Shown one piece after another: positions 3,257 to 25,154 of a stretch of 32,955 nucleotides of DNA. Positions within the stretch are counted from its first letter, which is position 1. The number at the start of each line of letters is the position of its first letter. The DNA is taken from positions 1-32,955 of the IMG/VR virus record IMGVR_UViG_2617271086_000008; one strand, 5' to 3'. A model generated the notes under the pieces. The model did no database searches. It was not told where the DNA came from and worked only from the letters and a program-made list of their open reading frames with translations. The stretch is from a virus (Duplodnaviria > Heunggongvirae > Uroviricota > Caudoviricetes). Position numbers and translations under genes: made by a program.

Positions 3257-3528
3257 GTATTCGTATTGAAATTGGCGAACGTTATGTCGTTACCAGTGAC
3301 AGCTTTCAGTTTATTCTCCACGAGAAAAAGAGAGCGGAAAGCGGTAAAAACGCCGGTCAGGAATGGCTGGCGGTGGTTGGTTATTATCCGAAATTAAGCC
3401 AGCTCGTTTCCGGCCTGATGCATCACGATATTCTGACCGGAAGCGCAAAGTCTTTTGCTGATTTAAACGCGCAGGTTGAGCAACTCAGCAGGCGTTGTTC
3501 AGAGGCTTTTGGCTCATATGGCCGTTAA
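3253..3528 (+). CDS. Hypothetical early protein
   Basis: 91-aa ORF overlapping upstream (ATGA) and downstream genes. Confidence 0.4.
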   Translation: MSIRIEIGERYVVTSDSFQFILHEKKRAESGKNAGQEWLAVVGYYPKLSQLVSGLMHHDILTGSAKSFADLNAQVEQLSRRCSEAFGSYGR

Positions 3529-5803
3529 AGCCTCCGGGCGTTTTGTCCCTCCTTCAGCATTTGCTGCAGGCACCGGTAAGGCGTTTACCGGTGCTTATGC
3601 ATGGAACGCGCCACGCGAGGCCGTCGGGCGCGAAAGACCCCTTACACGTGACGAGATGCGTCAGGTGCAAGGTGTTTTATCCACGATTAACCGCCTGCCT
3701 TACTTTTTGCGCTCGCTGTTTACTTCACGCTATGACTACATCCGGCGCAATAAAAGCCCGGTACACGGGTTTTATTTCCTCACATCCACTTTTCAGCGTC
3801 GTTTATGGCCGCGCATTGAGCGTGTGAATCAGCGCCATGAAATGAACACCGACGCGTCGTTACTGTTTCTGGCAGAGCGTGACCACTATGCGCGCCTGCC
3901 GGGAATGAATGACAAGGAGCTGAAAAAGTTTGCTGCCCGTATCTCATCGCAGCTTTTCATGATGTATGAGGAACTCAGCGATGCCTGGGTGGATGCGCAT
4001 GGCGAAAAAGAATCGCTGTTTACGGATGAGGCGCAGGTTCACCTCTATGGTCATGTTGCTGGCGCTGCACGTGCTTTCAATATTTCCCCTCTCTACTGGA
4101 AAAAATACCGTAAAGGGCAGATGACCACGAGGCAGGCATATTCTGCCATTGCCCGTCTGTTTAACGATGAGTGGTGGACTCATCAGCTTAAAGGCCAGCG
4201 TATGCGCTGGCATGAGGCGTTACTGATTGCTGTCGGGGAGGTCAATAAAGACCGTTCACCTTATGCCAGTAAACATGCTATTCGTGATGTGCGTACGCGC
4301 CGTCAGGCAAATCTGGAATTTCTTAAATCGTGTGACCTTGAAAACAGGGAAACCGGCGAACGCATCGACCTTATCAGTAAGGTGATGGGCAGTATTTCTA
4401 ATCCTGAAATTCGCCGGATGGAGCTGATGAACACCATTGCCGGTATTGAGCGTTACGCCGCCGCAGAGGGTGATGTGGGGATGTTTATCACGCTGACCGC
4501 GCCGTCAAAGTATCATCCGACACGTCAGGTCGGAAAAGGCGAAAGTAAAACCGTCCAGCTTAATCACGGCTGGAATGATGAGGCATTTAATCCGAAGGAT
4601 GCGCAGCGTTATCTCTGCCGTATCTGGAGCCTGATGCGCACGGCATTCAAGGATAATGATTTACAGGTCTACGGTTTGCGAGTCGTCGAGCCACACCACG
4701 ACGGAACGCCGCACTGGCATATGATGCTTTTTTGTAATCCACGCCAGCGTAACCAGATTATCGAAATCATGCGTCGCTATGCGCTCAAAGAGGATGGCGA
4801 CGAAAGAGGAGCTGCGCGAAACCGTTTTCAGGCAAAACACCTTAACCGGGGCGGTGCTGCGGGATATATCGCGAAATACATTTCAAAAAACATCGACGGC
4901 TATGCACTGGATGGTCAGCTCGATAACGATACCGGCAGGCCGCTGAAAGACACTGCTGCGGCTGTTACCGCATGGGCGTCAACGTGGCGCATCCCGCAAT
5001 TTAAAACGGTTGGCCTGCCGACAATGGGGGCTTACCGTGAACTACGTAAGTTGCCTCGCGGCGTCAGCATTGCTGATGAGTTTGACGAACGCGTCGAGGC
5101 TGCACGCGCTGCCGCAGACAGTGGCGATTTTGCGCTGTATATCAGCGCGCAGGGCGGGGCAAATGTCCCGCGCGATTGTCAGACTGTCAGGGTCGCCCGT
5201 AGCCCGTCGGATGACGTTAACGAGTATGAGGAAGAAGTCGAGAGAGTGGTCGGCATTTACGCGCCGCATCTCGGCGCGCGTCATATTCATATCACCAGAA
5301 CGACGGACTGGCGCATTGTGCCGAAAGTTCCGGTCGTTGAGCCTTTGACTTTAAAAAGCGGCATCGCCGCGCCTCGGAGTCCTGTCAATAACTGTGGAAA
5401 GCTCACCGGTGGTGATACTTCGTTACCGGCTCCCACGCCTTCTGAGCACGCCGCAGCAGTGCTTAATCTGGTTGATGACGGTGTTATCGAATGGAATGAC
5501 CCGGAGGTCGTGAGGGCGCTCAGAGGTGCATTAAAACACGAACTGAGAACACCAAATCGTCAGCAGAGAAACGGAAGCCCGTTAAAACCACATGAAATAG
5601 CGCCATCGGCCAGACTGACCCGGTCGGAACGAATGCAAATCACCCGTATCCGCGTTGACCTTGCTCAGAACGGTATCAGGCCTCAGCGATGGGAGCTTGA
5701 GGCGCTGGCGCGTGGCGCGACAGTAAATTATGACGGAATAAAATTCACGTATCCGGTCGCTGATGAGTGGCCGGGGTTCTCAAAAGTAATGGAGTGGACA
5801 TAA
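3518..5803 (+). CDS. A: Replication initiation endonuclease A (rolling-circle initiator)
   Basis: Long ORF; probable start ATG 3518 (MAVKASGRF, as in P2 gpA by recollection); HxH-type metal motif (GTPHWHMMLF) and YISKN/YIAKY tyrosine region. Confidence 0.9.
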   Translation: MAVKASGRFVPPSAFAAGTGKAFTGAYAWNAPREAVGRERPLTRDEMRQVQGVLSTINRLPYFLRSLFTSRYDYIRRNKSPVHGFYFLTSTFQRRLWPRIERVNQRHEMNTDASLLFLAERDHYARLPGMNDKELKKFAARISSQLFMMYEELSDAWVDAHGEKESLFTDEAQVHLYGHVAGAARAFNISPLYWKKYRKGQMTTRQAYSAIARLFNDEWWTHQLKGQRMRWHEALLIAVGEVNKDRSPYASKHAIRDVRTRRQANLEFLKSCDLENRETGERIDLISKVMGSISNPEIRRMELMNTIAGIERYAAAEGDVGMFITLTAPSKYHPTRQVGKGESKTVQLNHGWNDEAFNPKDAQRYLCRIWSLMRTAFKDNDLQVYGLRVVEPHHDGTPHWHMMLFCNPRQRNQIIEIMRRYALKEDGDERGAARNRFQAKHLNRGGAAGYIAKYISKNIDGYALDGQLDNDTGRPLKDTAAAVTAWASTWRIPQFKTVGLPTMGAYRELRKLPRGVSIADEFDERVEAARAAADSGDFALYISAQGGANVPRDCQTVRVARSPSDDVNEYEEEVERVVGIYAPHLGARHIHITRTTDWRIVPKVPVVEPLTLKSGIAAPRSPVNNCGKLTGGDTSLPAPTPSEHAAAVLNLVDDGVIEWNDPEVVRALRGALKHELRTPNRQQRNGSPLKPHEIAPSARLTRSERMQITRIRVDLAQNGIRPQRWELEALARGATVNYDGIKFTYPVADEWPGFSKVMEWT

Positions 5804-6252
5804 TGGCAAAAATTCACGAGGTAAAGCTGCACGCAAAATATTTTGACCTTGTACTGGAAGGAAAGAAACGAGCAGAGTTTCGTAAAAATGACCGTAATTA
5901 TGAGTGCGGGGACACGTTGATTTTGCATGAATGGGGGCAGGGGGTGTATACGGGGCGAAAGGTTGAAACCCGGATAACGGATGTTACTGACCTGTCAGAC
6001 TGGATGGAAGGTTATGTCTTGCTAAGTATTGAGCTGCTTAATACAGGCGCATATGAGATTGTGAACTGGAAAGAACTTAGTGAGCGTGGTCTGGTATTCA
6101 GAATTAATCATGACATTATGCATCAGCTCGGCCTTGCTGTTATGTATGAACCAGAGACGGGGATGTCTGGCGGGGCAATGGTTGCCACGGATGGAGCATG
6201 GAACTATTCAGATGAACAGATGGAGCATGCAAAGCAAAATGGGTGGTTTTGA
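5803..6252 (+). CDS. ASCH/PUA-like (DUF3850-like) protein with C-terminal extension
   Basis: Start ATG overlaps the A stop (TAATG); N-terminus MAKIHEVKLHAKYFDLVLEGKKRAEFRKNDRNYECGDTLILHEW resembles the DUF3850/ASCH fold signature. Confidence 0.55.
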   Translation: MAKIHEVKLHAKYFDLVLEGKKRAEFRKNDRNYECGDTLILHEWGQGVYTGRKVETRITDVTDLSDWMEGYVLLSIELLNTGAYEIVNWKELSERGLVFRINHDIMHQLGLAVMYEPETGMSGGAMVATDGAWNYSDEQMEHAKQNGWF

Positions 6253-6254
6253 AA

Positions 6255-6491
6255 ATGCACAGAATACCGGGTGAGATACCGCTGCATAACACTAAAAATA
6301 TCAAGCTGATGGCCATTGTTCACCGTCTACAACAGATTATGGTCAATGAGAATCTGACGCCCGATGAGCTAGTCGGGTGCGCTGAAATTGTCAGGGATAA
6401 TTACGGACGGTTCAACGATATCAGTCGACCGAAAGTTAAGACATATCAACCATATAATATGCTTAAACAACCACCACGCAGGCTTGAGTAA
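6255..6491 (+). CDS. Hypothetical small protein
   Basis: ATG 6255 overlaps the upstream stop (TGAAAATG); no recognisable motif. Confidence 0.35.
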   Translation: MHRIPGEIPLHNTKNIKLMAIVHRLQQIMVNENLTPDELVGCAEIVRDNYGRFNDISRPKVKTYQPYNMLKQPPRRLE

Positions 6492-6792: not shown

Positions 6793-7830
6793 ATGGCGGT
6801 AAAAGTTGTTGATCTTTTTTGTGGTGCTGGCGGGCTTACTCATGGCTTAAAGCAAGCCGGATTAGATGTAGTCGCTGGTATTGATATAGAGAGTGCATGC
6901 CGGGTTGCTTATGAAAGTAATAACAGTGCGCTTTTTATTGAAAAAGATATTTCTCTGGTGACCAAAGACGAGCTTAACGATCTTTTTGAAGGTGCGCAGG
7001 TCAGGGTGTTGGCTGGTTGTGCGCCGTGCCAACCTTTTTCAAGGTATACGCAAGGGCGCGATAAGAAAAATGATAAAAAGTGGCCTCTTCTTTATGAATT
7101 TGAACGTTTAATTCGAGGGGTTAATCCAGAGATCGTTACAATGGAAAATGTGCCTGATGTAACGAAGCATTCTGTTTATAGTGACTTCTATAATAGTTTA
7201 GAGGCATTGGGTTATCATGTCTGGGCCGGAAAGGTTGAATGTGTAGATTATGGTGTTCCGCAAAATAGAGTAAGGCATGTATTATTGGCATCTAAATTTG
7301 CGCCGCTTTCATTTGTAAAACCAAAAGTAGAAAAGGCGGTGACGGTAAAAGAATGCATTGGCGGACTTCCTCCATTAAAGGCAGGTCAAACGGATCCTGT
7401 TGATCCTTTACATAAAGCAAGTAAATTAAGTGATATAAATCTAAAACGTATTGCTTGCTCTAAACCAGGAGGGACATGGCGAGACTGGCCAGTAGAGTTG
7501 ATTGCATCATGCCACATAAAGAAAAGTGGGCAAGGTTATGCTAGTGTATACGGACGTATGGATTGGGATAAACCAAGTCCTACAATTACTACGCTATGTT
7601 ATGGTTTTGGAAATGGCAGATTTGGTCATCCAGAGCAAAATCGTGCAATTTCTCTGAGAGAGGCTGCATTGTTGCAAACGTTTCCAAAGGATTACGTTTT
7701 TACTGCACCCAATGAGAAAGTATCTATAAAGAATGTTGGTAGGATGATTGGTAATGCAGTACCGGTAAAACTAGGTGAGGTTATAGGTGAGTCAATTATA
7801 ACTCACCTAAAAGAGCACAATATAGTTTAA
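6793..7830 (+). CDS. DNA (cytosine-5)-methyltransferase
   Basis: Motif I DLFCGAGG, motif IV GCAPCQPFS (catalytic PCQ), motif VI ENV, motif VIII QNRVR, motif X GNAV; AT-rich relative to the phage backbone. Confidence 0.9.
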   Translation: MAVKVVDLFCGAGGLTHGLKQAGLDVVAGIDIESACRVAYESNNSALFIEKDISLVTKDELNDLFEGAQVRVLAGCAPCQPFSRYTQGRDKKNDKKWPLLYEFERLIRGVNPEIVTMENVPDVTKHSVYSDFYNSLEALGYHVWAGKVECVDYGVPQNRVRHVLLASKFAPLSFVKPKVEKAVTVKECIGGLPPLKAGQTDPVDPLHKASKLSDINLKRIACSKPGGTWRDWPVELIASCHIKKSGQGYASVYGRMDWDKPSPTITTLCYGFGNGRFGHPEQNRAISLREAALLQTFPKDYVFTAPNEKVSIKNVGRMIGNAVPVKLGEVIGESIITHLKEHNIV

Positions 7831-8558
7831 GCCTGTAGTCTTGATGATCGTATGTATAAGCGATCATCAAGGTATTTTTGTATGTTTTCTAGTATTTCTT
7901 CTAGGTAATGGAAAACTTCATTTTTAAGAAGTTCAAGGTTGTCAATAGACGTTTCTTGACCCTTGTTTAAAAAGGATTCTGAACCATGTGCCAATGCATT
8001 TCTTGCTTTTTTTATGTTTACTAAATTTCCACCATTATGAGTTTTTGAACGATCTGTTTGATAGGAAAAACCATAGATATTAGCAACATCCCTAATTTTC
8101 TGTGCGTCAACATTTCCCGAAAATAGGGGGTTTTTATCTGCTTGAACTTGTTTTTTGTGTTCCTCTAGCCATTTTTTTAGAACTAGTTTTGCTATATCAC
8201 CTTGTGAAAAATCCATGTCACTCACCATATGATGGTCTAATTTTTTTAAGGCAAGCTTTGTTAAACTTTCGCAAATCTTATCGACACAAAGATCATCGCA
8301 CGAATTAAGTTCATTATGTATGTCTTCAATAGCATTAGATATAGTGGCTTCAATTAAGTTATATAATATAATAAACGCATTGGCTTTAAGGATATGCGTC
8401 ATTTCGATATCGATTTCGCGGTGTTTACATTCGCCTGCTGTGCGATCTTTGTACGAGAAAGTTGGTCTCTCATCAATAATGAATTTAACAAAATTAAAAT
8501 ATTTTTCTATATCTTCTTTTCTTTCAGAAAATAAAATTTTGCTGTTCATAATGACCAC
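7827..8558 (-). CDS. HEPN-like protein (R-x4-HG motif), putative RNase/abortive-infection effector
   Basis: 243 aa; C-terminal motif KARNALAHG (R186-x4-H191-G); probable GTG start at 8558 with a GAGGAG RBS that overlaps the stop of the upstream DUF262 gene. Confidence 0.6.
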   Translation of the reverse strand: MVIMNSKILFSERKEDIEKYFNFVKFIIDERPTFSYKDRTAGECKHREIDIEMTHILKANAFIILYNLIEATISNAIEDIHNELNSCDDLCVDKICESLTKLALKKLDHHMVSDMDFSQGDIAKLVLKKWLEEHKKQVQADKNPLFSGNVDAQKIRDVANIYGFSYQTDRSKTHNGGNLVNIKKARNALAHGSESFLNKGQETSIDNLELLKNEVFHYLEEILENIQKYLDDRLYIRSSRLQA

Positions 8559-8564
8559 GGATAG

Positions 8565-9689
8565 TTACTCCTCACTATCATCTAGAACAGTATCTTCGGT
8601 CTGCACACCTAAAAGTTTGTCTCTTACATATTCAATACGTGCTTTTACTTTAGGTTTTGAGTTTGACGCATCAGATCTTGTATGTTTAATAAACTCTTCT
8701 GAGTTTAACCATTCCTCTACCGGTGTTGGTATTATGTTAGAGTTAGTTTTTAAGGCTAAAGTGGAACCGACAGCTAACGCTTCAAAGCGAATTCTTGGTA
8801 CAGTGTTTGCTGTTGCATTCTTTCTGAAACCATAGGGGAAATGTGTTTTGACAAATTCACACATATCTTGAAATTGTGCAGTTAGTTTTTCTTCTTGCTC
8901 AGGACTAAATGACTCATTTCGTTGGTCAAGATATTGGGTTAAGAAAGTATCAACACTTTTTTCAAAGTTAAGATAGTTATCACAATAGGCAAAATATCTA
9001 AGAACCAATTCTGGATATTCTCCACGACTGATTCTGGCATCGTTTAGAGGGCATATTTCCCTAAACAATGGAAACTCTGATAGTCTATTAACAACATCAA
9101 GAAAAGGCCCATCATTACTGCCCTGTCGTTGCTCCATTGTCGTGAGTTTTATTCCACCTGTATTCAATCGATCGAAAATCTCCCTTCTTGCTTCTTCATC
9201 ACATAATTCAGTGAGTTCAATCATTCGAATAGTTTTTCTATCGAATCTAAGCTTACGTGCAGGTGTGAAGTCAGAGTATTTGAATCCGTTGGCTGAAGTT
9301 AACTTTTTTAATCCAGTAAGGGTAAATTTATCATTTAGAAAATGATAAAGTGTTCTAATCCTCTGGCTACCATCAACGATTTCCAATCGCCCATCGTCAT
9401 TTCCGATATCGGCAACAAATACATATGGGATAGGAATATTTAGCAAAAGCGATTCAATGAATCTTGATTTTTGAACATTGCTCCAAACAAATTCCCTTTG
9501 ATAATCAGGTATGTATAGTTCTGCTTGGTCGGTTTCTAATCCTTTCTGAAATTTGTCAACAATGACACTTACAGGAAACTCTCTAATTTGGTGATCCGTT
9601 ATTTTTTGCATGGATTTGATCTGGTTATCCAGGTCAACTTTATCTTCTTCTGTGATCACTTGTTCAGGTTGTCTTGGGACTCTTGCCAT
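8565..9689 (-). CDS. DUF262 (ParB/GmrS-like NTPase) domain protein without HNH/DUF1524
   Basis: Motifs DYQREFVW, IVDGSQRIRT (DGQQR-like) and FDRLNTGGIKL; likely start ATG 9689 with an AAGGAG RBS (ORF extends to 9851). Confidence 0.75.
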   Translation of the reverse strand: MARVPRQPEQVITEEDKVDLDNQIKSMQKITDHQIREFPVSVIVDKFQKGLETDQAELYIPDYQREFVWSNVQKSRFIESLLLNIPIPYVFVADIGNDDGRLEIVDGSQRIRTLYHFLNDKFTLTGLKKLTSANGFKYSDFTPARKLRFDRKTIRMIELTELCDEEARREIFDRLNTGGIKLTTMEQRQGSNDGPFLDVVNRLSEFPLFREICPLNDARISRGEYPELVLRYFAYCDNYLNFEKSVDTFLTQYLDQRNESFSPEQEEKLTAQFQDMCEFVKTHFPYGFRKNATANTVPRIRFEALAVGSTLALKTNSNIIPTPVEEWLNSEEFIKHTRSDASNSKPKVKARIEYVRDKLLGVQTEDTVLDDSEE

Positions 9690-9992
9690 TTGTTTTCTCC
9701 TTATGCTTATTTGCAATAAGTTGCATTTGTTTGCATGCGTAGTTTTATACTGATTTAATCCCACAAGTCCTTTATATGCAAGGGTTAGAGGCTTAAATGC
9801 ACCTGCATTAAAACCGCCTTGTGAAGCGGGCAGGCGAGGCGGGGAAAGCACTGCGCGCTGGCGGTGGTGCTGATTTTATTTTTTCAGCGTCTCAGCGCGT
9901 CGTAATGGCGCTTAGTCTGCCCGTTGAGGCGTTGGTGTGTCTGCGGGGTGTTTTGTGCGGTGGTGAGCGTGTGAGGGCGTGATGACGGGGTG

Positions 9993-10020: not shown

Positions 10021-11055
10021 TCAACCGTTGTCAGTGTCCAGTGAGTAGTTTTTAAAGCGGATGACCTCCTGACCGAGCCAGCCGTTTATTTCCCGAATTC
10101 TGTCCTGTAACGGGATAAGCTCATTGCGGACAAAGACCTTTGCCACTTTCTCAATATCACCCAGCGACCCGACGTTCTCCGGCTTGCCGCCCATCAACTG
10201 AAAAGGGATGCGGTGCGCGTCCAGCAGGTCTGCGGCGCTGGCTTTTTTGATATTAAAAAAATCGTCCTTCGTTGCCACTTCACTGAGCGGGATAATTTTA
10301 ATGCCGTCGGCTTTCCCTTGCGGGGCATAGAGAAACAGATTTTTAAAGTTGTTGCGGCCTTTCGACTTCACCATGTTTTCGCGGAGCATTTCGATATCGT
10401 TGCGATCCTGCACGGCATCAGTGACGTACATGATGTATCCGGCATGTGCGCCGTTTTCGTAATACTTGCGGCGGAACAGCGTGGCCGACTCATTCAGCCA
10501 GGCAGAGTTAAGGGCGCTGAGATATTCCGGCAGGCCGTACAGCTCCTGATTAATATCCGGCTCCAGCAGGTGAAACACGGAGCCGGGCGCGAAGGCTGTC
10601 GGCTCGTTGAAGGACGGCACCCACCAGTAAACATCCTCTTCCACGCCACGGCGGGTATATTTTGCCGGTGAGGTTTCCAGTCTGATGACCTTACCGGTGG
10701 TGCTGTAACGCTTTTCCAGAAACGCATTACCGAACACCAGAAAATCCAGCACAAAACGGCTGAAATCCTGCTGGGAAAGCCACGGATGCGGAATAAACGT
10801 TGAAGCCAGAATATTGCGTTTAACGTAAATCGGCGAGCTGTGATGCACGGCAGCACGCAGGCTTTTTGCCAGACCGGTAAAGCTGACCGGTGGCTCATAC
10901 CATCTGCCGTTACTGATGCACTCGACGTAATCCAGAATGTCACGGCGGTCGAGAACCGGCACCGGCTCGCCAAAGGTGAATGCCTCCATTTTCGGTGCGC
11001 TGGCGGTCATTTTTTTTGCCGCAGGTTGCGGTGTTTTCCCTTTTTTCTTGCTCAT
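10021..11055 (-). CDS. Q: Portal protein
   Basis: 344 aa, size and position of P2 gpQ; transcribed with P. Confidence 0.9.
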   Translation of the reverse strand: MSKKKGKTPQPAAKKMTASAPKMEAFTFGEPVPVLDRRDILDYVECISNGRWYEPPVSFTGLAKSLRAAVHHSSPIYVKRNILASTFIPHPWLSQQDFSRFVLDFLVFGNAFLEKRYSTTGKVIRLETSPAKYTRRGVEEDVYWWVPSFNEPTAFAPGSVFHLLEPDINQELYGLPEYLSALNSAWLNESATLFRRKYYENGAHAGYIMYVTDAVQDRNDIEMLRENMVKSKGRNNFKNLFLYAPQGKADGIKIIPLSEVATKDDFFNIKKASAADLLDAHRIPFQLMGGKPENVGSLGDIEKVAKVFVRNELIPLQDRIREINGWLGQEVIRFKNYSLDTDNG

Positions 11056-21156: not shown

Positions 21157-21760
21157 TTCGCGACTGCTGCCGACTGGCTCATCACCGCTTGAAGTTGCCG
21201 CCGCAAAAGCCTGCGCGGAAATTGAAAAAACGCCGGTCAGTATTCGTGAGCTGTGGAACCCGGATACCTGCCCGGCAAATCTGCTGCCGTGGCTGGCGTG
21301 GTCATTTTCGGTTGACCGCTGGGATGATAAGTGGCCGGAAGCGACAAAACGCGCTGTTATCCGCGATGCGTATTTCATTCACTGTCATAAAGGCACTATA
21401 GGTGCAATCCGGCGTGTGGTGGAGCCGCTCGGCTATCTGATTGAGGTGAGGGAGTGGTGGCAGCTCAACGAGGAGCCGGGGACGTTCCGTATCGTTGTTG
21501 GCGTGCTTGAGCAGGGTATTACCGAAGAAATGTATCAGGAGCTGGAGCGCCTCGTTGCTGATGCAAAACCGGCGAGCCGCCATCTTACGGGACTGGCTAT
21601 CAGTTTAAGTACAACCGGCAACATTTTTGCCGGTGCGGGATGCTATCACGGTGACGCCCTGACGGTTTATCCCTACACCCCGGAGGCCATTATTGTCGGA
21701 GGGGATTATTTCCCGGCCTCGGCCATTCATTTAATTGATAACCTGAGAGTAAACGCATGA
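21149..21760 (+). CDS. I: Baseplate/tail protein I
   Basis: P2 gpI position; exact start uncertain (ORF gives 203 aa). Confidence 0.8.
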   Translation: MSDSRLLPTGSSPLEVAAAKACAEIEKTPVSIRELWNPDTCPANLLPWLAWSFSVDRWDDKWPEATKRAVIRDAYFIHCHKGTIGAIRRVVEPLGYLIEVREWWQLNEEPGTFRIVVGVLEQGITEEMYQELERLVADAKPASRHLTGLAISLSTTGNIFAGAGCYHGDALTVYPYTPEAIIVGGDYFPASAIHLIDNLRVNA

Positions 21761-23052
21761 CAGTGAAATACTACGCCATTCTGACTAATCAGGGCGCAGC
21801 ACGGCTGGCTAACGCGACGATGCTCGGCAGTAAGCTGAATCTGACGCAAATGGCCGTTGGTGATGCGAATGGTGTCTTGCCGACACCAGACCCGGCACAG
21901 ACAAAACTGATTAACCAGAAACGCATCGCGCCGCTGAATCTTCTGAGTGTTGACCCGAACAACCAGAGCCAGATTATTGCGGAGCAAATCATCCCTGAGA
22001 ACGAGGGCGGATTCTGGATCCGTGAGATTGGGCTTTATGATGATGAAGGCGTACTCATTGCGGTGGCGAACTGCCCGGAAACGTACAAACCGCAGTTGCA
22101 GGAAGGCAGTGGTCGTACCCAGACTATCCGCATGATTCTTGTTGTCACGAATACCGAAGCTATCACGCTGAAAATCGACCCGTCGGTGGTACTGGCGACC
22201 CGTAAATACGTGGATGATGAAGTCCTGGAATTAAGGCTGTATGTGGATGACCAGATGAGAAACCACATTGCCGCACAGGATCCTCATACCCAGTATGCGC
22301 AGAAACATAATCCGACATTTACCGGAGAACCAAAAGCGCCGACGCCTGCCGCAGGAAATAACACCACGCGGATTGCGACCACTGCGTTTGTACAGGCCGC
22401 TATTACCGCTCTGATTAACGGTGCGCCTGACACGCTGGACACACTGAAAGAAATTGCCGCGGCCATTAACAATGACCCGAAATTCAGCACCACCATTAAC
22501 AATGCGCTGTCAGGTAAGCAGCCACTGGATGAGACGCTGACTCATTTGAGTGGAAAGGATGTTGCCGGTCTTCTCGCATACCTTGGTTTGGGAGAAACGA
22601 TAAATAAAGCCTCCGGAGCTATGCAGAAATCGGCTAATGGATCTGATATTTCTGATGTATCAGCCTTCCGAAATGCGCTCCAGTTAGGGACCGCTGCAAC
22701 ACGAGATGTTGGAGCAGATAATGCCTCGAAGTTACTGGATTTAGACAGCTTCAGGTCAATGATGTCAGGTAATGGCTACATCTACATTCCATGCATTGCG
22801 ACGACAGGAAACCCGGTGAAACTTATGTTGCAGTGGGGAACGGTGGCAACACAAAAGGGAGCTGATGCTGGATATGCCTTACCATTTGCTTTTCCCTATG
22901 CAGGCTTGTTTGCGACCGGAAACCGTGGAACATCTGGCTACAATGCCGCGATGAATGTGCGTATTGCCAGCAGAACGCATATCAGTATTCAGAACTGGTC
23001 GCCATCCGGAGAGGGCACCGAAGATTGTTGTTTTATCGCGCTGGGGTATTAA
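21757..23052 (+). CDS. H: Tail fibre protein H (constant N-terminus plus currently expressed variable C-terminus)
   Basis: 431 aa; the constant/variable junction at the LGLGE codons coincides with the inversion crossover site. Confidence 0.85.
   Translation: MTVKYYAILTNQGAARLANATMLGSKLNLTQMAVGDANGVLPTPDPAQTKLINQKRIAPLNLLSVDPNNQSQIIAEQIIPENEGGFWIREIGLYDDEGVLIAVANCPETYKPQLQEGSGRTQTIRMILVVTNTEAITLKIDPSVVLATRKYVDDEVLELRLYVDDQMRNHIAAQDPHTQYAQKHNPTFTGEPKAPTPAAGNNTTRIATTAFVQAAITALINGAPDTLDTLKEIAAAINNDPKFSTTINNALSGKQPLDETLTHLSGKDVAGLLAYLGLGETINKASGAMQKSANGSDISDVSAFRNALQLGTAATRDVGADNASKLLDLDSFRSMMSGNGYIYIPCIATTGNPVKLMLQWGTVATQKGADAGYALPFAFPYAGLFATGNRGTSGYNAAMNVRIASRTHISIQNWSPSGEGTEDCCFIALGY
22571..22596. 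repeat. Invertase crossover site (left), inside gene H
   Basis: TTCTCGCATACC-TT-GGTTTGGGAGAA; the 14-bp core ttggtttgggagaa (22583-22596) is the exact reverse complement of 24480-24493. Confidence 0.7.
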
Positions 23053-23054
23053 GA

Positions 23055-23471
23055 ATGAATAAATTTTATAAAGGCTCTTTCTATCCGGAAGCACTAAAAG
23101 AGGTATATATCAGCGCCGGTTCATGGCCTGAAAATGGCGTTGATGTTGATGATGAAACAATGGCAATTTACACAGGCGTAGCGCCACAAGGCAAAACGCT
23201 GGGGGCTGATAAAAATGGTAATCCTGCGTGGATTGATATCCCGCCACTCTCCGCTGAACAACAGATTATTCAGGCTGAACAGAAAAGAACGGTATTGCGT
23301 TCTATGGCTGATAAGGAAATAGTCTGGAGACAGGATGCTTTTGATGCGGAAATCGCGACGGCAGAAGAAACCGCCGCGTTATCTGAATGGAAAAAATACC
23401 GGGTCTTGCTGATGCGCGTTGATACATCAAATCCCGTCTGGCCTACGCCTCCGGGGGAGCAGGCCAATTGA
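23055..23471 (+). CDS. G: Tail fibre assembly protein (current orientation)
   Basis: ATG 23055 immediately after the H stop; 138 aa. Confidence 0.75.
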   Translation: MNKFYKGSFYPEALKEVYISAGSWPENGVDVDDETMAIYTGVAPQGKTLGADKNGNPAWIDIPPLSAEQQIIQAEQKRTVLRSMADKEIVWRQDAFDAEIATAEETAALSEWKKYRVLLMRVDTSNPVWPTPPGEQAN

Positions 23472-24036
23472 TATCCGGCGCGGTGCTGGTATCTGTTGCC
23501 GTCACCGCGTCAATGTAATCCAGCACAGCGTTAAGCCGGGTTGTTTCTGCCTGCGTCAGTTTCCGCCCGGCCTGTAATTTCAGCTGAATCAGACTAATGG
23601 AAGCCATTGCAGCATCAATCAGCGACTGGCGCTGTGCTTCTGCCGCGTCTACTGCGGCGCTATGCTGTGCCTCGGTATCCGTCACCCATTTCTCACCATC
23701 CCATTTATCGTATGGCGTTAACGGTGAAAGCGTGACATAACCGTCTTTGATGGCACCGATATAATCCACTGTAACAGCTGCACCATTTTCTGTTGAGTAA
23801 ACAGTCTCATTGCGATGGTCTTCTTCATGGATCCATCCCTTACCCGTAAATACTGCCACTTTTCCAGGAATGTTTTCGCCCGGGTCAATACCAGTGGAAC
23901 AGGCGGGCATACTTACACCAGTATTAATATATTCATCAGACCAGCCCGTATATTCATACGTTACTTCATCATAATAAAAACAACGCATATCACCCGGCAC
24001 TGTAGCCAGTCCATTTTCATCAAAAACAGGTTTCAT
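23443..24036 (-). CDS. Alternative tail fibre assembly protein (inverted cassette)
   Basis: 197-aa minus-strand ORF inside the invertible segment; 3' end overlaps G convergently. Confidence 0.7.
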   Translation of the reverse strand: MKPVFDENGLATVPGDMRCFYYDEVTYEYTGWSDEYINTGVSMPACSTGIDPGENIPGKVAVFTGKGWIHEEDHRNETVYSTENGAAVTVDYIGAIKDGYVTLSPLTPYDKWDGEKWVTDTEAQHSAAVDAAEAQRQSLIDAAMASISLIQLKLQAGRKLTQAETTRLNAVLDYIDAVTATDTSTAPDINWPAPPEA

Positions 24037-24493
24037 TATTTAGCCCTCACCAGAAAGTTAAATGCGATGTTACGTGGTCTGACGGCAATAAAATTCACAC
24101 CATCACCCACTGAATTACTGGTGTAATGGTATCGAGAGAAACCCGGCTCGTGTGCTGATATTCCATCGTGATTAGCAATCGAATGGCCGGAGCCCTCTGG
24201 ATAATTACCGCCAAATTGCGATAAAGATGTTGCTGCCTGCCAGCTTAATAATGCTCGTCCACTGTCCGCCCCTCGCCCATCATCCCAGATACGAATGAAA
24301 TCACCGCGGGCTTCAGGCAATACCAGCGAAGGAAACACTTTCGCCAGCACAGGGTAATCAGTGGCAGAGAATTTCGCGCCGTTGAACTTCAAAAACACCA
24401 TGCTGGACCAGCTGTCGATTACGGTATCTGGCATTGCGGCGGACGGCCAGAAGAACGGAACGCCAATAGCTGGAACACCTTCTCCCAAACCAA
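24036..24493 (-). other. Promoterless alternative tail-fibre C-terminal cassette (Hv')
   Basis: Minus-strand ORF whose 5' end encodes GLGE at the right crossover site; inversion would fuse it in frame to the H constant region. Confidence 0.7.
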
Positions 24494-24505
24494 CGTTTAA
24501 GAAAA
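24480..24505. repeat. Invertase crossover site (right)
   Basis: TTCTCCCAAACC-AA-CGTTTAAGAAAA; imperfect palindrome of the Hin/Gin half-site type, inverted relative to 22571-22596. Confidence 0.7.
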
Positions 24506-24560
24506 TGCAGAGATTACGGCTAACTGGCATCATCCCCGGTTTTTATTCAGGGGATCCATC

Positions 24561-25154
24561 ATGCTTATTGGCTATGTCCGCGTGTCAACAAATGACCAGA
24601 ATACGGAATTGCAGCGTAACGCGCTGGAGTGCGCAGGATGTGAGCTGATTTTTGAGGATAAAATCAGCGGCACGAAGTCCGACCGACCGGGACTGAAAAA
24701 ACTGCTCAGGACATTATCGGAGGGGGATACACTGGTGGTCTGGAAGCTGGACCGGCTGGGGCGTAGTATGCGGCATCTGGTCATTCTGGTTGAGGAACTG
24801 CGCGAACGCGGCGTTAATTTTCGCAGCCTGACAGATGCTATTGATACCAGCACGCCGATGGGGCGTTTTTTCTTTCATGTGATGGGTGCCCTGGCTGAAA
24901 TGGAGCGAGAACTCATTGTCGAGCGGACACGCGCCGGACTGGAAGCGGCCAGAGCCAAAGGTCGTATTGGTGGCAGACGACCGAAACTCACCGCGAGTGA
25001 GTGGGAGCAGGTCGGACGGTTGCTGGCTGCGGGGGAATCTCGTCAACGTGTAGCGCTGATTTTTGATATTGGCCTGTCCACGCTCTATAAAAAATTCCCC
25101 TCATCAGCGACAAAGAATAAATTGTGTCATCCCTTAGCCAACCGGGACAAATAG
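24561..25154 (+). CDS. Serine DNA invertase (Pin/Gin/Cin/Hin family)
   Basis: N-terminus MLIGYVRVSTNDQ with catalytic Ser; resolvase core (VWKLDRLGRS) and C-terminal HTH; very similar to e14 Pin as recalled. Confidence 0.9.
   Translation: MLIGYVRVSTNDQNTELQRNALECAGCELIFEDKISGTKSDRPGLKKLLRTLSEGDTLVVWKLDRLGRSMRHLVILVEELRERGVNFRSLTDAIDTSTPMGRFFFHVMGALAEMERELIVERTRAGLEAARAKGRIGGRRPKLTASEWEQVGRLLAAGESRQRVALIFDIGLSTLYKKFPSSATKNKLCHPLANRDK

Follow-up and report, generated by a model that had tools for sequence, protein, structure and literature searches.

Among the closest described systems, PD-T4-2 from E. coli ECOR65 is an operon described as 'DUF262, HEPN' that protects K-12 against T4 and whose deletion sensitizes the native strain (records RCO39066.1 and QOYX01000002:338334-339873; Vassallo et al., 2022, PMC9519451). 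The cloned fragment, of 1.8 kb, comprised the two genes and no methylase, and HHpred assigned the B protein to HEPN_RiboL-PSP and HEPN_MAE_28990 (PMC9519451). An operon of an MAE_28990 HEPN protein, a ParB protein and a DNA methylase had been predicted in silico by Anantharaman et al. (2013; PMC3710099, Table 1); in that table and in section 10 of the paper, ParB is read as a DNase and the HEPN RNases linked to restriction-modification (R-M) systems as a second line of defense, by analogy with PrrC-EcoprrI. The analysis of the Menshen system named the domains of NsnA-type proteins ParB-DUF262 and ParBDB, proposed that they sense phage DNA, and speculated that ParB-DUF262 proteins with solitary methylases 'may target non-modified genomes' (PMC12065111). 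Here we describe a DUF262-HEPN operon and its adjacent C5 DNA methylase in the cargo of a P2-like prophage, IMG/VR record IMGVR_UViG_2617271086_000008 (positions 1 to 32,955, the whole 32,955-nt stretch analyzed, hereafter the window). The DUF262-HEPN pair belongs to a conserved, co-diverging three-gene unit with the C5 DNA methylase. Tentatively, and at slightly less than an even chance, we read this unit as a methylation-coupled defense module that follows R-M logic with an HEPN RNase as effector and travels as P2 prophage cargo.

First, we focus on the proteins of the module. The initial annotation had placed a minus-strand DUF262-HEPN operon at 7827-9689, and both open reading frames (ORFs) are found there. 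The first encodes a DUF262/ParB-like nucleoside triphosphatase (NTPase) protein of 374 aa, the presumed DNA sensor (8565-9689, minus strand), and the second an HEPN protein of the MAE_28990 family, the presumed RNase effector (7827-8558, minus strand), which measures 243 aa from GTG 8558 and 240 aa from ATG 8549, the RefSeq start. The C5 DNA cytosine methyltransferase gene (345 aa; 6793-7830, plus strand) converges with the HEPN gene, sharing 4 nt with its 3' end. PF03235 (GmrSD_N/DUF262) is the sole Pfam domain of the DUF262 protein (7.4e-29), and DUF1524 is therefore absent, as the annotation had claimed; an N-terminal ParB-DUF262 domain is followed by a helical C-terminal domain rather than by DUF1524/HNH. 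The motifs that had been singled out are all present in the protein, namely DYQREFVW at aa 62, DGSQR at aa 106 (D106 G107 S108 Q109 R110; 9360-9374, minus strand) and FDRLNTGG at aa 172, and their general forms PxYQRxxxW, DGSQR and FDRLNxGG are invariant in 15 homologs from Proteobacteria and Bacteroidota. According to the literature, the counterpart of DGSQR in GmrSD-type proteins, DGQQR, acts in NTP hydrolysis. A structure model of moderate quality (predicted local distance difference test, pLDDT, 75) has BrxU (7p9k) as its best Foldseek match in the PDB, followed by ParB cytidine triphosphatases (CTPases), a comparison that the annotation had proposed.

The second protein is HEPN-like, as had been suggested from its C-terminal motif. 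It scores above the gathering threshold for HEPN_MAE_28990 (8.6e-21) and for RiboL-PSP-HEPN (4.2e-7), and it combines the HEPN fold with the conserved Rx4-6H motif that characterizes the superfamily. The predicted catalytic motif R186-N-A-L-A-H191 (Rx4H, numbered from the GTG; 7986-8003, minus strand) lies within KARNALAHG, and 32 family members, with identity down to 22%, retain without exception the residues R, N, L, A, H and G of the wider pattern RNxLAHG. No nuclease fold other than HEPN was found in the module proteins by Pfam or Foldseek. A profile search of the PDB sequences returned no solved relative of the DUF262 or HEPN protein, NCBIfam holds no model for either, and their PHROGs matches are confined to families of unknown function. 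Both proteins have hundreds of homologs, with synteny in every related locus examined, and hence are not chance ORFs. The two genes overlap by 1-4 nt in distant homologous loci, indicating that their translational coupling is conserved. Coupling through a GAGGAG ribosome-binding site had been proposed for the window, and this stands except for one detail: the GAGGAG Shine-Dalgarno sequence (8568-8573, minus strand) consists of the last two DUF262 codons and abuts the TAA stop codon (8565-8567) instead of overlapping it. It lies 9 nt ahead of the HEPN GTG and 18 nt ahead of the ATG.

The methylase matches PF00145 (1.3e-54) and TIGR00675 (4e-37), and in an alignment to M.HaeIII the C5 catalytic motifs are conserved. 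Its best PADLOC model is DrmMII (PDLC02651, 6.1e-94). A reading as a Dnmt2-like tRNA methylase was considered and found no support, the Dnmt2 matches being weaker than those to DNA methylases.

The initial annotation had treated the pair as a two-gene module with an optional methyltransferase, and here the genomic survey departs from it. In a scan of one genome per species, relatives were found in 523 of 185,579 species, and the best 80 loci were annotated; these span Proteobacteria, Bacteroidota, Verrucomicrobiota, Planctomycetota, Acidobacteriota, Cyanobacteria and a bacterium of the candidate phyla radiation. The DUF262 protein itself stands out by its conservation: it has 4557 database matches and is about 60% identical to proteins from Pseudomonas, Shewanella and Cytophagales. 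Conservation of the DUF262-HEPN neighborhood, which had been put forward as a check, is complete, as an HEPN ORF of the family lies immediately downstream of DUF262 in 88/88 loci. Flanking sequence was sufficient to judge the methylase in 61 species loci, and an orthologous C5-methylase (phmmer E from 1e-96 to 1e-198) is adjacent to the pair in 53 of them: in 33 it is convergent after HEPN, in 18 upstream on the same strand and in two downstream on the same strand. The convergent arrangement is found in Proteobacteria and the upstream same-strand arrangement in Bacteroidota, Planctomycetota and Acidobacteriota. The eight loci lacking the ortholog comprise five with the N6-methylase DrmMI directly upstream, one with a diverged C5 methyltransferase and two cyanobacterial loci with no methylase nearby. 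Viral contigs from IMG/VR, an independent set, agree with this picture: among 68 judgeable contigs, 62 carry HEPN and the methylase, four HEPN alone and two neither. Thus the C5-methylase is a conserved third component, adjacent to the pair and co-diverging with it across phyla, rather than an optional neighbor.

Co-divergence was assessed by Mantel correlation of the protein distance matrices over the 61 loci, which gave r = 0.68 for DUF262 and methylase, 0.80 for DUF262 and HEPN and 0.63 for methylase and HEPN (p = 0.001 each); hence the three genes travel as a unit. Across phyla, the median identity to the window proteins is 31% for HEPN, the fastest-evolving of the three, 50% for DUF262 and 54% for the methylase. 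The target-recognition region of the methylase is conserved as much as its catalytic core, suggesting that one fixed target motif may be shared by the whole family. The methylase is intact in 127 of the 129 loci carrying one. The layout with DUF262 followed by HEPN_MAE_28990 and then a convergent C5-methylase recurs in Pseudomonas Tn7 cargo, a Cytophagales chromosome and a Polaromonas plasmid, and the contexts of the module include the P2 hotspot, Tn7 cargo, a plasmid and Moraxella phages.

Two features of the junction between the genes deserve mention. A variant with four genes occurs in the Pseudomonas Tn7 cargo (locus L003), directly after tnsABCDE-like genes: a 649-aa GHKL/MORC-type ATPase (L003:6978-8927), which matches the PADLOC Type II restriction endonuclease (REase) model PDLC03419 at 1e-112, is encoded between the HEPN gene and the methylase. 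In other genomes the methylase and HEPN genes overlap by 74-89 nt, and in the window an inverted repeat with a 14-bp stem (7838-7873), a candidate terminator of the convergent junction, lies just past the methylase stop codon and within the last HEPN codons. Convergent overlap and hairpin could put the effector under antisense or transcriptional-interference control when the methylase is transcribed.

The module is rare in E. coli. At 98% identity or more it is found in 4/5426 complete genomes, whereas 1600 E. coli genomes match the query in its cos-proximal 111 nt. A sister allele of about 73% nucleotide identity, with the same three genes in the same slot, occurs in three more genomes and in phage P2_4B2. 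Its methylase contains a poly-G tract at codon ~225 that varies among six copies at least 99.9% identical (L002:3845-3857, L091, L092, L093, L096 and L098). The tract is G6 in E. coli 2015C-4136CT1 and G8 in phage P2_4B2, both frameshifted, and G7, with an intact methylase, in strain 181.1, strain 2023CK-01509 and two IMG/VR contigs. Phase variation of the methylase would account for these differences, as would sequencing error in a homopolymer. The window allele reads CCAGGAGGG and has no poly-G tract.

To place the module among known systems, PADLOC v2 models were searched against the five cargo proteins, and the HEPN protein was compared with PD-T4-2_B at E<=10 from either start codon. The DUF262 protein matches NsnA of Menshen at 5.9e-56 (188 bits, model positions 34-377 of 385) and PD-T4-2_A at 1.7e-34 (117 bits, model positions 56-356 of 363). 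The SspE, HEC-05/06 and Orf5 models match just the first ~30-85 residues of the DUF262 domain, and a weak match to REase_II PDLC03418 (2.5e-8) is confined to the same domain. None of the PADLOC models matched the HEPN protein; PD-T4-2_B failed to do so even at E<=10 and did not match five HEPN homologs either. NsnB and NsnC found no match among the five cargo proteins. PADLOC consequently called neither PD-T4-2, Menshen, Dazbog, GmrSD nor any other system, and because its profiles match the DUF262 but not the HEPN protein, we do not call the locus a PD-T4-2 member. Judged by these profiles, the module is a methylase-coupled relative of PD-T4-2 with the same predicted sensor-effector architecture, and its HEPN protein falls outside PD-T4-2 at the profile level. 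The proposal of an undescribed system thus holds insofar as no named system was called; the architecture as such was already present in Anantharaman et al. and in PD-T4-2. Since the nearest DUF262 profiles are NsnA and PD-T4-2A, not GmrSD, SspE or BrxU, the description as a split GmrSD with a swapped effector is best kept as a loose analogy.

How might the three proteins work together? From the families involved, we infer a function in defense, a signal that passes from sensor to effector, an RNA target and DNA methylation as the mark of self. The methyltransferase would mark host and prophage DNA at one fixed motif. The DUF262 protein would scan DNA and undergo an NTP-dependent switch on unmarked DNA, and this switch would release or activate the partner HEPN RNase. 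HEPN might then cleave tRNA, rRNA or transcripts and stop the infection, probably sacrificing the cell. A fixed target region of the methylase fits one mark that is read by a very conserved DUF262 protein, and precedents for parts of the scheme are provided by the anti-T4 activity of PD-T4-2, by PrrC-EcoprrI and by the suggestion on solitary methylases in the Menshen paper. A broader version extends the scheme to a widespread R-M-like immunity, present in at least 523 species-level genomes from more than eight phyla and in many prophages, in which a ParB/CTPase-like switch reads methylation and HEPN acts on RNA with no DNA cleavage; this is possible, with the balance tilting against it. In a bolder variant, the pair would guard DNA-methylation systems generally, whether a C5 methyltransferase or DISARM DrmMI, and fire when a phage blocks methylation.

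Several observations weigh against the proposed module. PD-T4-2 functions as a cloned two-gene fragment without a methylase, and methylase-less relatives of the window pair exist on an E. coli IncF plasmid (L089), at two cyanobacterial and at four viral loci. Frameshifts disrupt the methylase, but not the pair next to it, in Neisseria weixii, in viral contig L160 and in the G6 and G8 variants of the sister allele; under strict R-M logic this would be lethal, unless the pair is silent there or the frameshifts arose in sequencing. One lineage has an N6-adenine methylase in place of the C5 enzyme, yet its DUF262 is still ~55% identical, which is awkward if DUF262 reads one specific mark. The target of the methylase cannot be inferred from the nearest solved enzymes (M.HaeIII, DNMT1, M.HhaI), as they match in the catalytic core only, and our literature search found no experimental paper on a methylase-linked triad. 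The methylase-less systems, the frameshifted methylases and the exchange for DrmMI therefore keep three other explanations in contention.

According to the first of these, the genes are independent neighbors: the pair would be a self-sufficient abortive-infection system like PD-T4-2, responding to a cue unrelated to methylation, and the methylase an orphan enzyme that shields phage DNA from host restriction. PD-T4-2 protects without a methylase, other pairs lacking one exist, pairs survive beside frameshifted methylases, and the methylase of the window is transcribed separately from the opposite strand. We nevertheless regard this explanation as unlikely. Adjacency is maintained in 53/61 species loci and 62/68 viral loci, over more than eight phyla and in two gene orders, as well as in phage, Tn7, plasmid and chromosomal contexts; the proteins co-diverge; and a missing C5 enzyme is usually replaced by another DNA methylase.

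The second explanation, a two-pronged R-M system, follows the proposal in Table 1 and section 10 of Anantharaman et al. (2013; PMC3710099). Here DUF262 would itself be a DNase acting on unmethylated DNA, and HEPN a suicidal back-up for the case that the DNase is inhibited or overwhelmed. The weak PDLC03418 match within the DUF262 domain might be taken in its favor. In GmrSD, BrxU and SspE, however, cleavage is the task of DUF1524 and DUF262 is the NTPase or sensor. Moreover, HEPN is the sole nuclease fold found in the module, and after BrxU the structural neighbors of the DUF262 protein are ParB CTPases, which makes a DNase role improbable.

The third explanation reverses the meaning of the mark. 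As in SspE or Type IV-like systems, DUF262 would sense either host 5-methylcytosine (m5C), as a signal that activates or positions it, or modified cytosines of the phage and then turn on HEPN, and loss of the methylase would inactivate the system, not kill the cell. Such a modification-licensed or modification-dependent sensor has parallels: the DUF262 domain of SspE senses host phosphorothioate marks, BrxU, the best structural match, acts on DNA with m5C, hydroxymethylcytosine (hmC) or glucosylated hmC (glc-hmC), and PD-T4-2 was selected on T4, whose DNA contains glucosyl-hmC. The tolerance of frameshifted methylases would also be explained. On the other hand, a sensor of modified cytosine next to a writer of m5C risks autoimmunity, the integrity of nearly all methylases suggests that they are needed, and SspE reportedly arrests growth without its modification genes. 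Taken together, we assign this explanation a low probability.

Finally, the module could be a selfish addiction element, in which after loss of the element methylation is diluted and the longer-lived DUF262-HEPN pair kills segregants, stabilizing P2, Tn7 or plasmids with defense as a secondary effect; the module resides almost only on mobile elements and its convergent layout resembles that typical of addictive Type II systems, but chromosomal copies exist in stable contexts, the hotspot is known for anti-phage cargo, and addiction is compatible with the methylation-coupled module and the other explanations rather than an alternative to them; on its own it is very improbable.

Two further groups of relatives were noted. 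A tblastn search of phage and plasmid collections identified methylase-less pairs of DUF262 and a small HEPN on two E. coli IncF plasmids, L089 (NZ_CP137740) and L090 (pRHB15-C18_2). The window DUF262 protein shares 37.7% identity with the A protein of L089 and 27.4% with that of L090, and the B protein of L090 has 180 aa and an RHAFAH motif; PADLOC recognizes neither pair as PD-T4-2. At five loci (L032, L035, L036, L039 and L077) the DUF262-HEPN pair has DrmMI on one side and the DISARM helicase DrmA on the other, an arrangement of DISARM class 1, with DrmA at full length in four of the five. These copies are ~90% identical between a Verrucomicrobiota metagenome-assembled genome, Brachymonas, Pseudoxanthomonas, Alcanivorax and Hydrogenophaga, suggesting an island that has moved recently. 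On viral contig L105 only DrmMI is seen, upstream of the pair, as the contig ends after the pair. The DISARM/YprA literature that could be searched contained no description of DUF262-HEPN inside DISARM.

The window segment 7700-9900 (2.2 kb) is 100% identical to a prophage of E. coli strain 1002W03 (river water, Japan), whose annotation gives replication gene A at 3476-5803 and portal gene Q at 10021-11055. The cargo lies between gene A and the cos site/portal gene Q, and its GC content is 32-46%, with 32-41% in the region of the operon, compared with 53% in the two flanking genes. This agrees with the placement in an AT-rich P2 hotspot made from the sequence alone, and the A-Q slot is an established P2 defense hotspot (Vassallo et al., 2022, PMC9519451; Rousset et al., 2022). 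Two more genes share the slot, a DUF3850/ASCH protein of 161 aa (5767-6252, plus strand), which overlaps the end of gene A, and an 82-aa ORF (6243-6491, plus strand). DUF3850/ASCH was considered as a part of the module and rejected, as it is missing from the sister-allele prophage and all other contexts; both genes form a separate small cargo and belong to phage PHROG families of unknown function.

On the other side of the operon, positions 9833-9851 (plus strand) carry GGCGAGGCGGGGAAAGCAC, which we take to be the 19-nt P2 cohesive-end sequence in an exact match, 144 nt ahead of the DUF262 start. The linear record of phage P2_4B2 has the homologous DUF262 gene beginning 139 nt from its right end. 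Both distances put the cargo operon, with its promoter, at the very right-hand terminus of the virion DNA. A 428-aa reading of DUF262 from GTG 9851 was rejected because it runs through the cos site. The true start is ATG 9689, with an AAGGAG Shine-Dalgarno sequence (9697-9702, minus strand) 7 nt 5' of it, and M1 is invariant in the alignment of homologs. The region from cos to the DUF262 start (9690-9832, minus strand) should hold the operon's own promoter, and a consensus scan of it identified no convincing candidate. A hairpin followed by a T run (9829-9814) lies upstream of the DUF262-HEPN operon, as does the Q terminator (10015-10000). Elsewhere in the window, an invertible tail-fiber segment was seen at 23443-25154. 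It contains an inverted tail-fiber assembly gene (23443-24036, minus strand), an unassigned ORF that is probably an alternative fiber tip (24036-24533, minus strand) and a serine invertase with Resolvase and HTH_7 domains (24561-25154, plus strand); the forward tail-fiber gene and its assembly gene are found at 21757-23052 and 23025-23471, respectively.

The module could provide an experimental entry to infection recognition by the DUF262/ParB-type sensors of PD-T4-2, Menshen and Dazbog, since its dedicated methylase gives a simple handle. By removing the methylase or supplying it in trans, one could ask whether the sensor reads DNA methylation. The module is compact (~2.9 kb) and present in a culturable E. 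coli prophage and in the isolated phage P2_4B2, with natural variants in which the methylase is ON or OFF. If our proposal is correct, an R-M-type system with an RNase effector would make the boundary between restriction and abortive infection less sharp, coupling the discrimination of self and non-self DNA to an abortive RNase response. It would also explain why HEPN genes are frequently found beside methylases.

Lastly, we compare the module with known systems. Its two minus-strand genes resemble PD-T4-2 in forming a two-gene operon with a short DUF262 protein lacking DUF1524 upstream and HEPN downstream, and in the same two HEPN Pfam families. The B protein of PD-T4-2 differs from the window HEPN protein in its size, ~165 aa versus 243 aa, and at the level of profiles, and PD-T4-2 works without a methylase whereas the clade of the window carries a conserved C5 methyltransferase. 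With Menshen the window protein shares the NsnA-type design of ParB-DUF262 and a C-terminal DNA-binding domain; the ATP-binding cassette (ABC) ATPase NsnB and the inPIN effector NsnC are missing from the cargo region, and HEPN takes the place of the effector. GmrSD, BrxU and SspE likewise begin with a DUF262 NTPase domain that bears a DGxQR motif, and BrxU is the best structural match. These enzymes consist of one protein each, and modified DNA is their target or licenses their action, whereas the window protein has half their size and no DUF1524/HNH (no PF07510 match). In PrrC-EcoprrI, too, the gene of an HEPN RNase is linked to a DNA modification system, and an NTPase regulates the RNase. 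PrrC, however, has an ABC ATPase fused to HEPN within a complete Type I R-M system, while in the window the NTPase is a separate ParB-like protein and a restriction endonuclease is absent. The window methylase is scored best by the DISARM model DrmMII, yet DrmA, DrmB, DrmC and DrmE are absent from the cargo between A and Q. As in Type II R-M systems, a C5 DNA methyltransferase with conserved catalytic motifs is present, but no REase fold was found beyond the weak DUF262 match to PDLC03418. The operon of Anantharaman et al. has the same three components, and the window is a member of that predicted neighborhood, which stands in their Table 1 as a single line, unnamed and without experiments or a survey; the view of ParB as a DNase is not supported by later work on DUF262. 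Hence the DUF262-HEPN architecture and the predicted three-gene neighborhood were already known, and the module differs from PD-T4-2 by its dedicated methylase.

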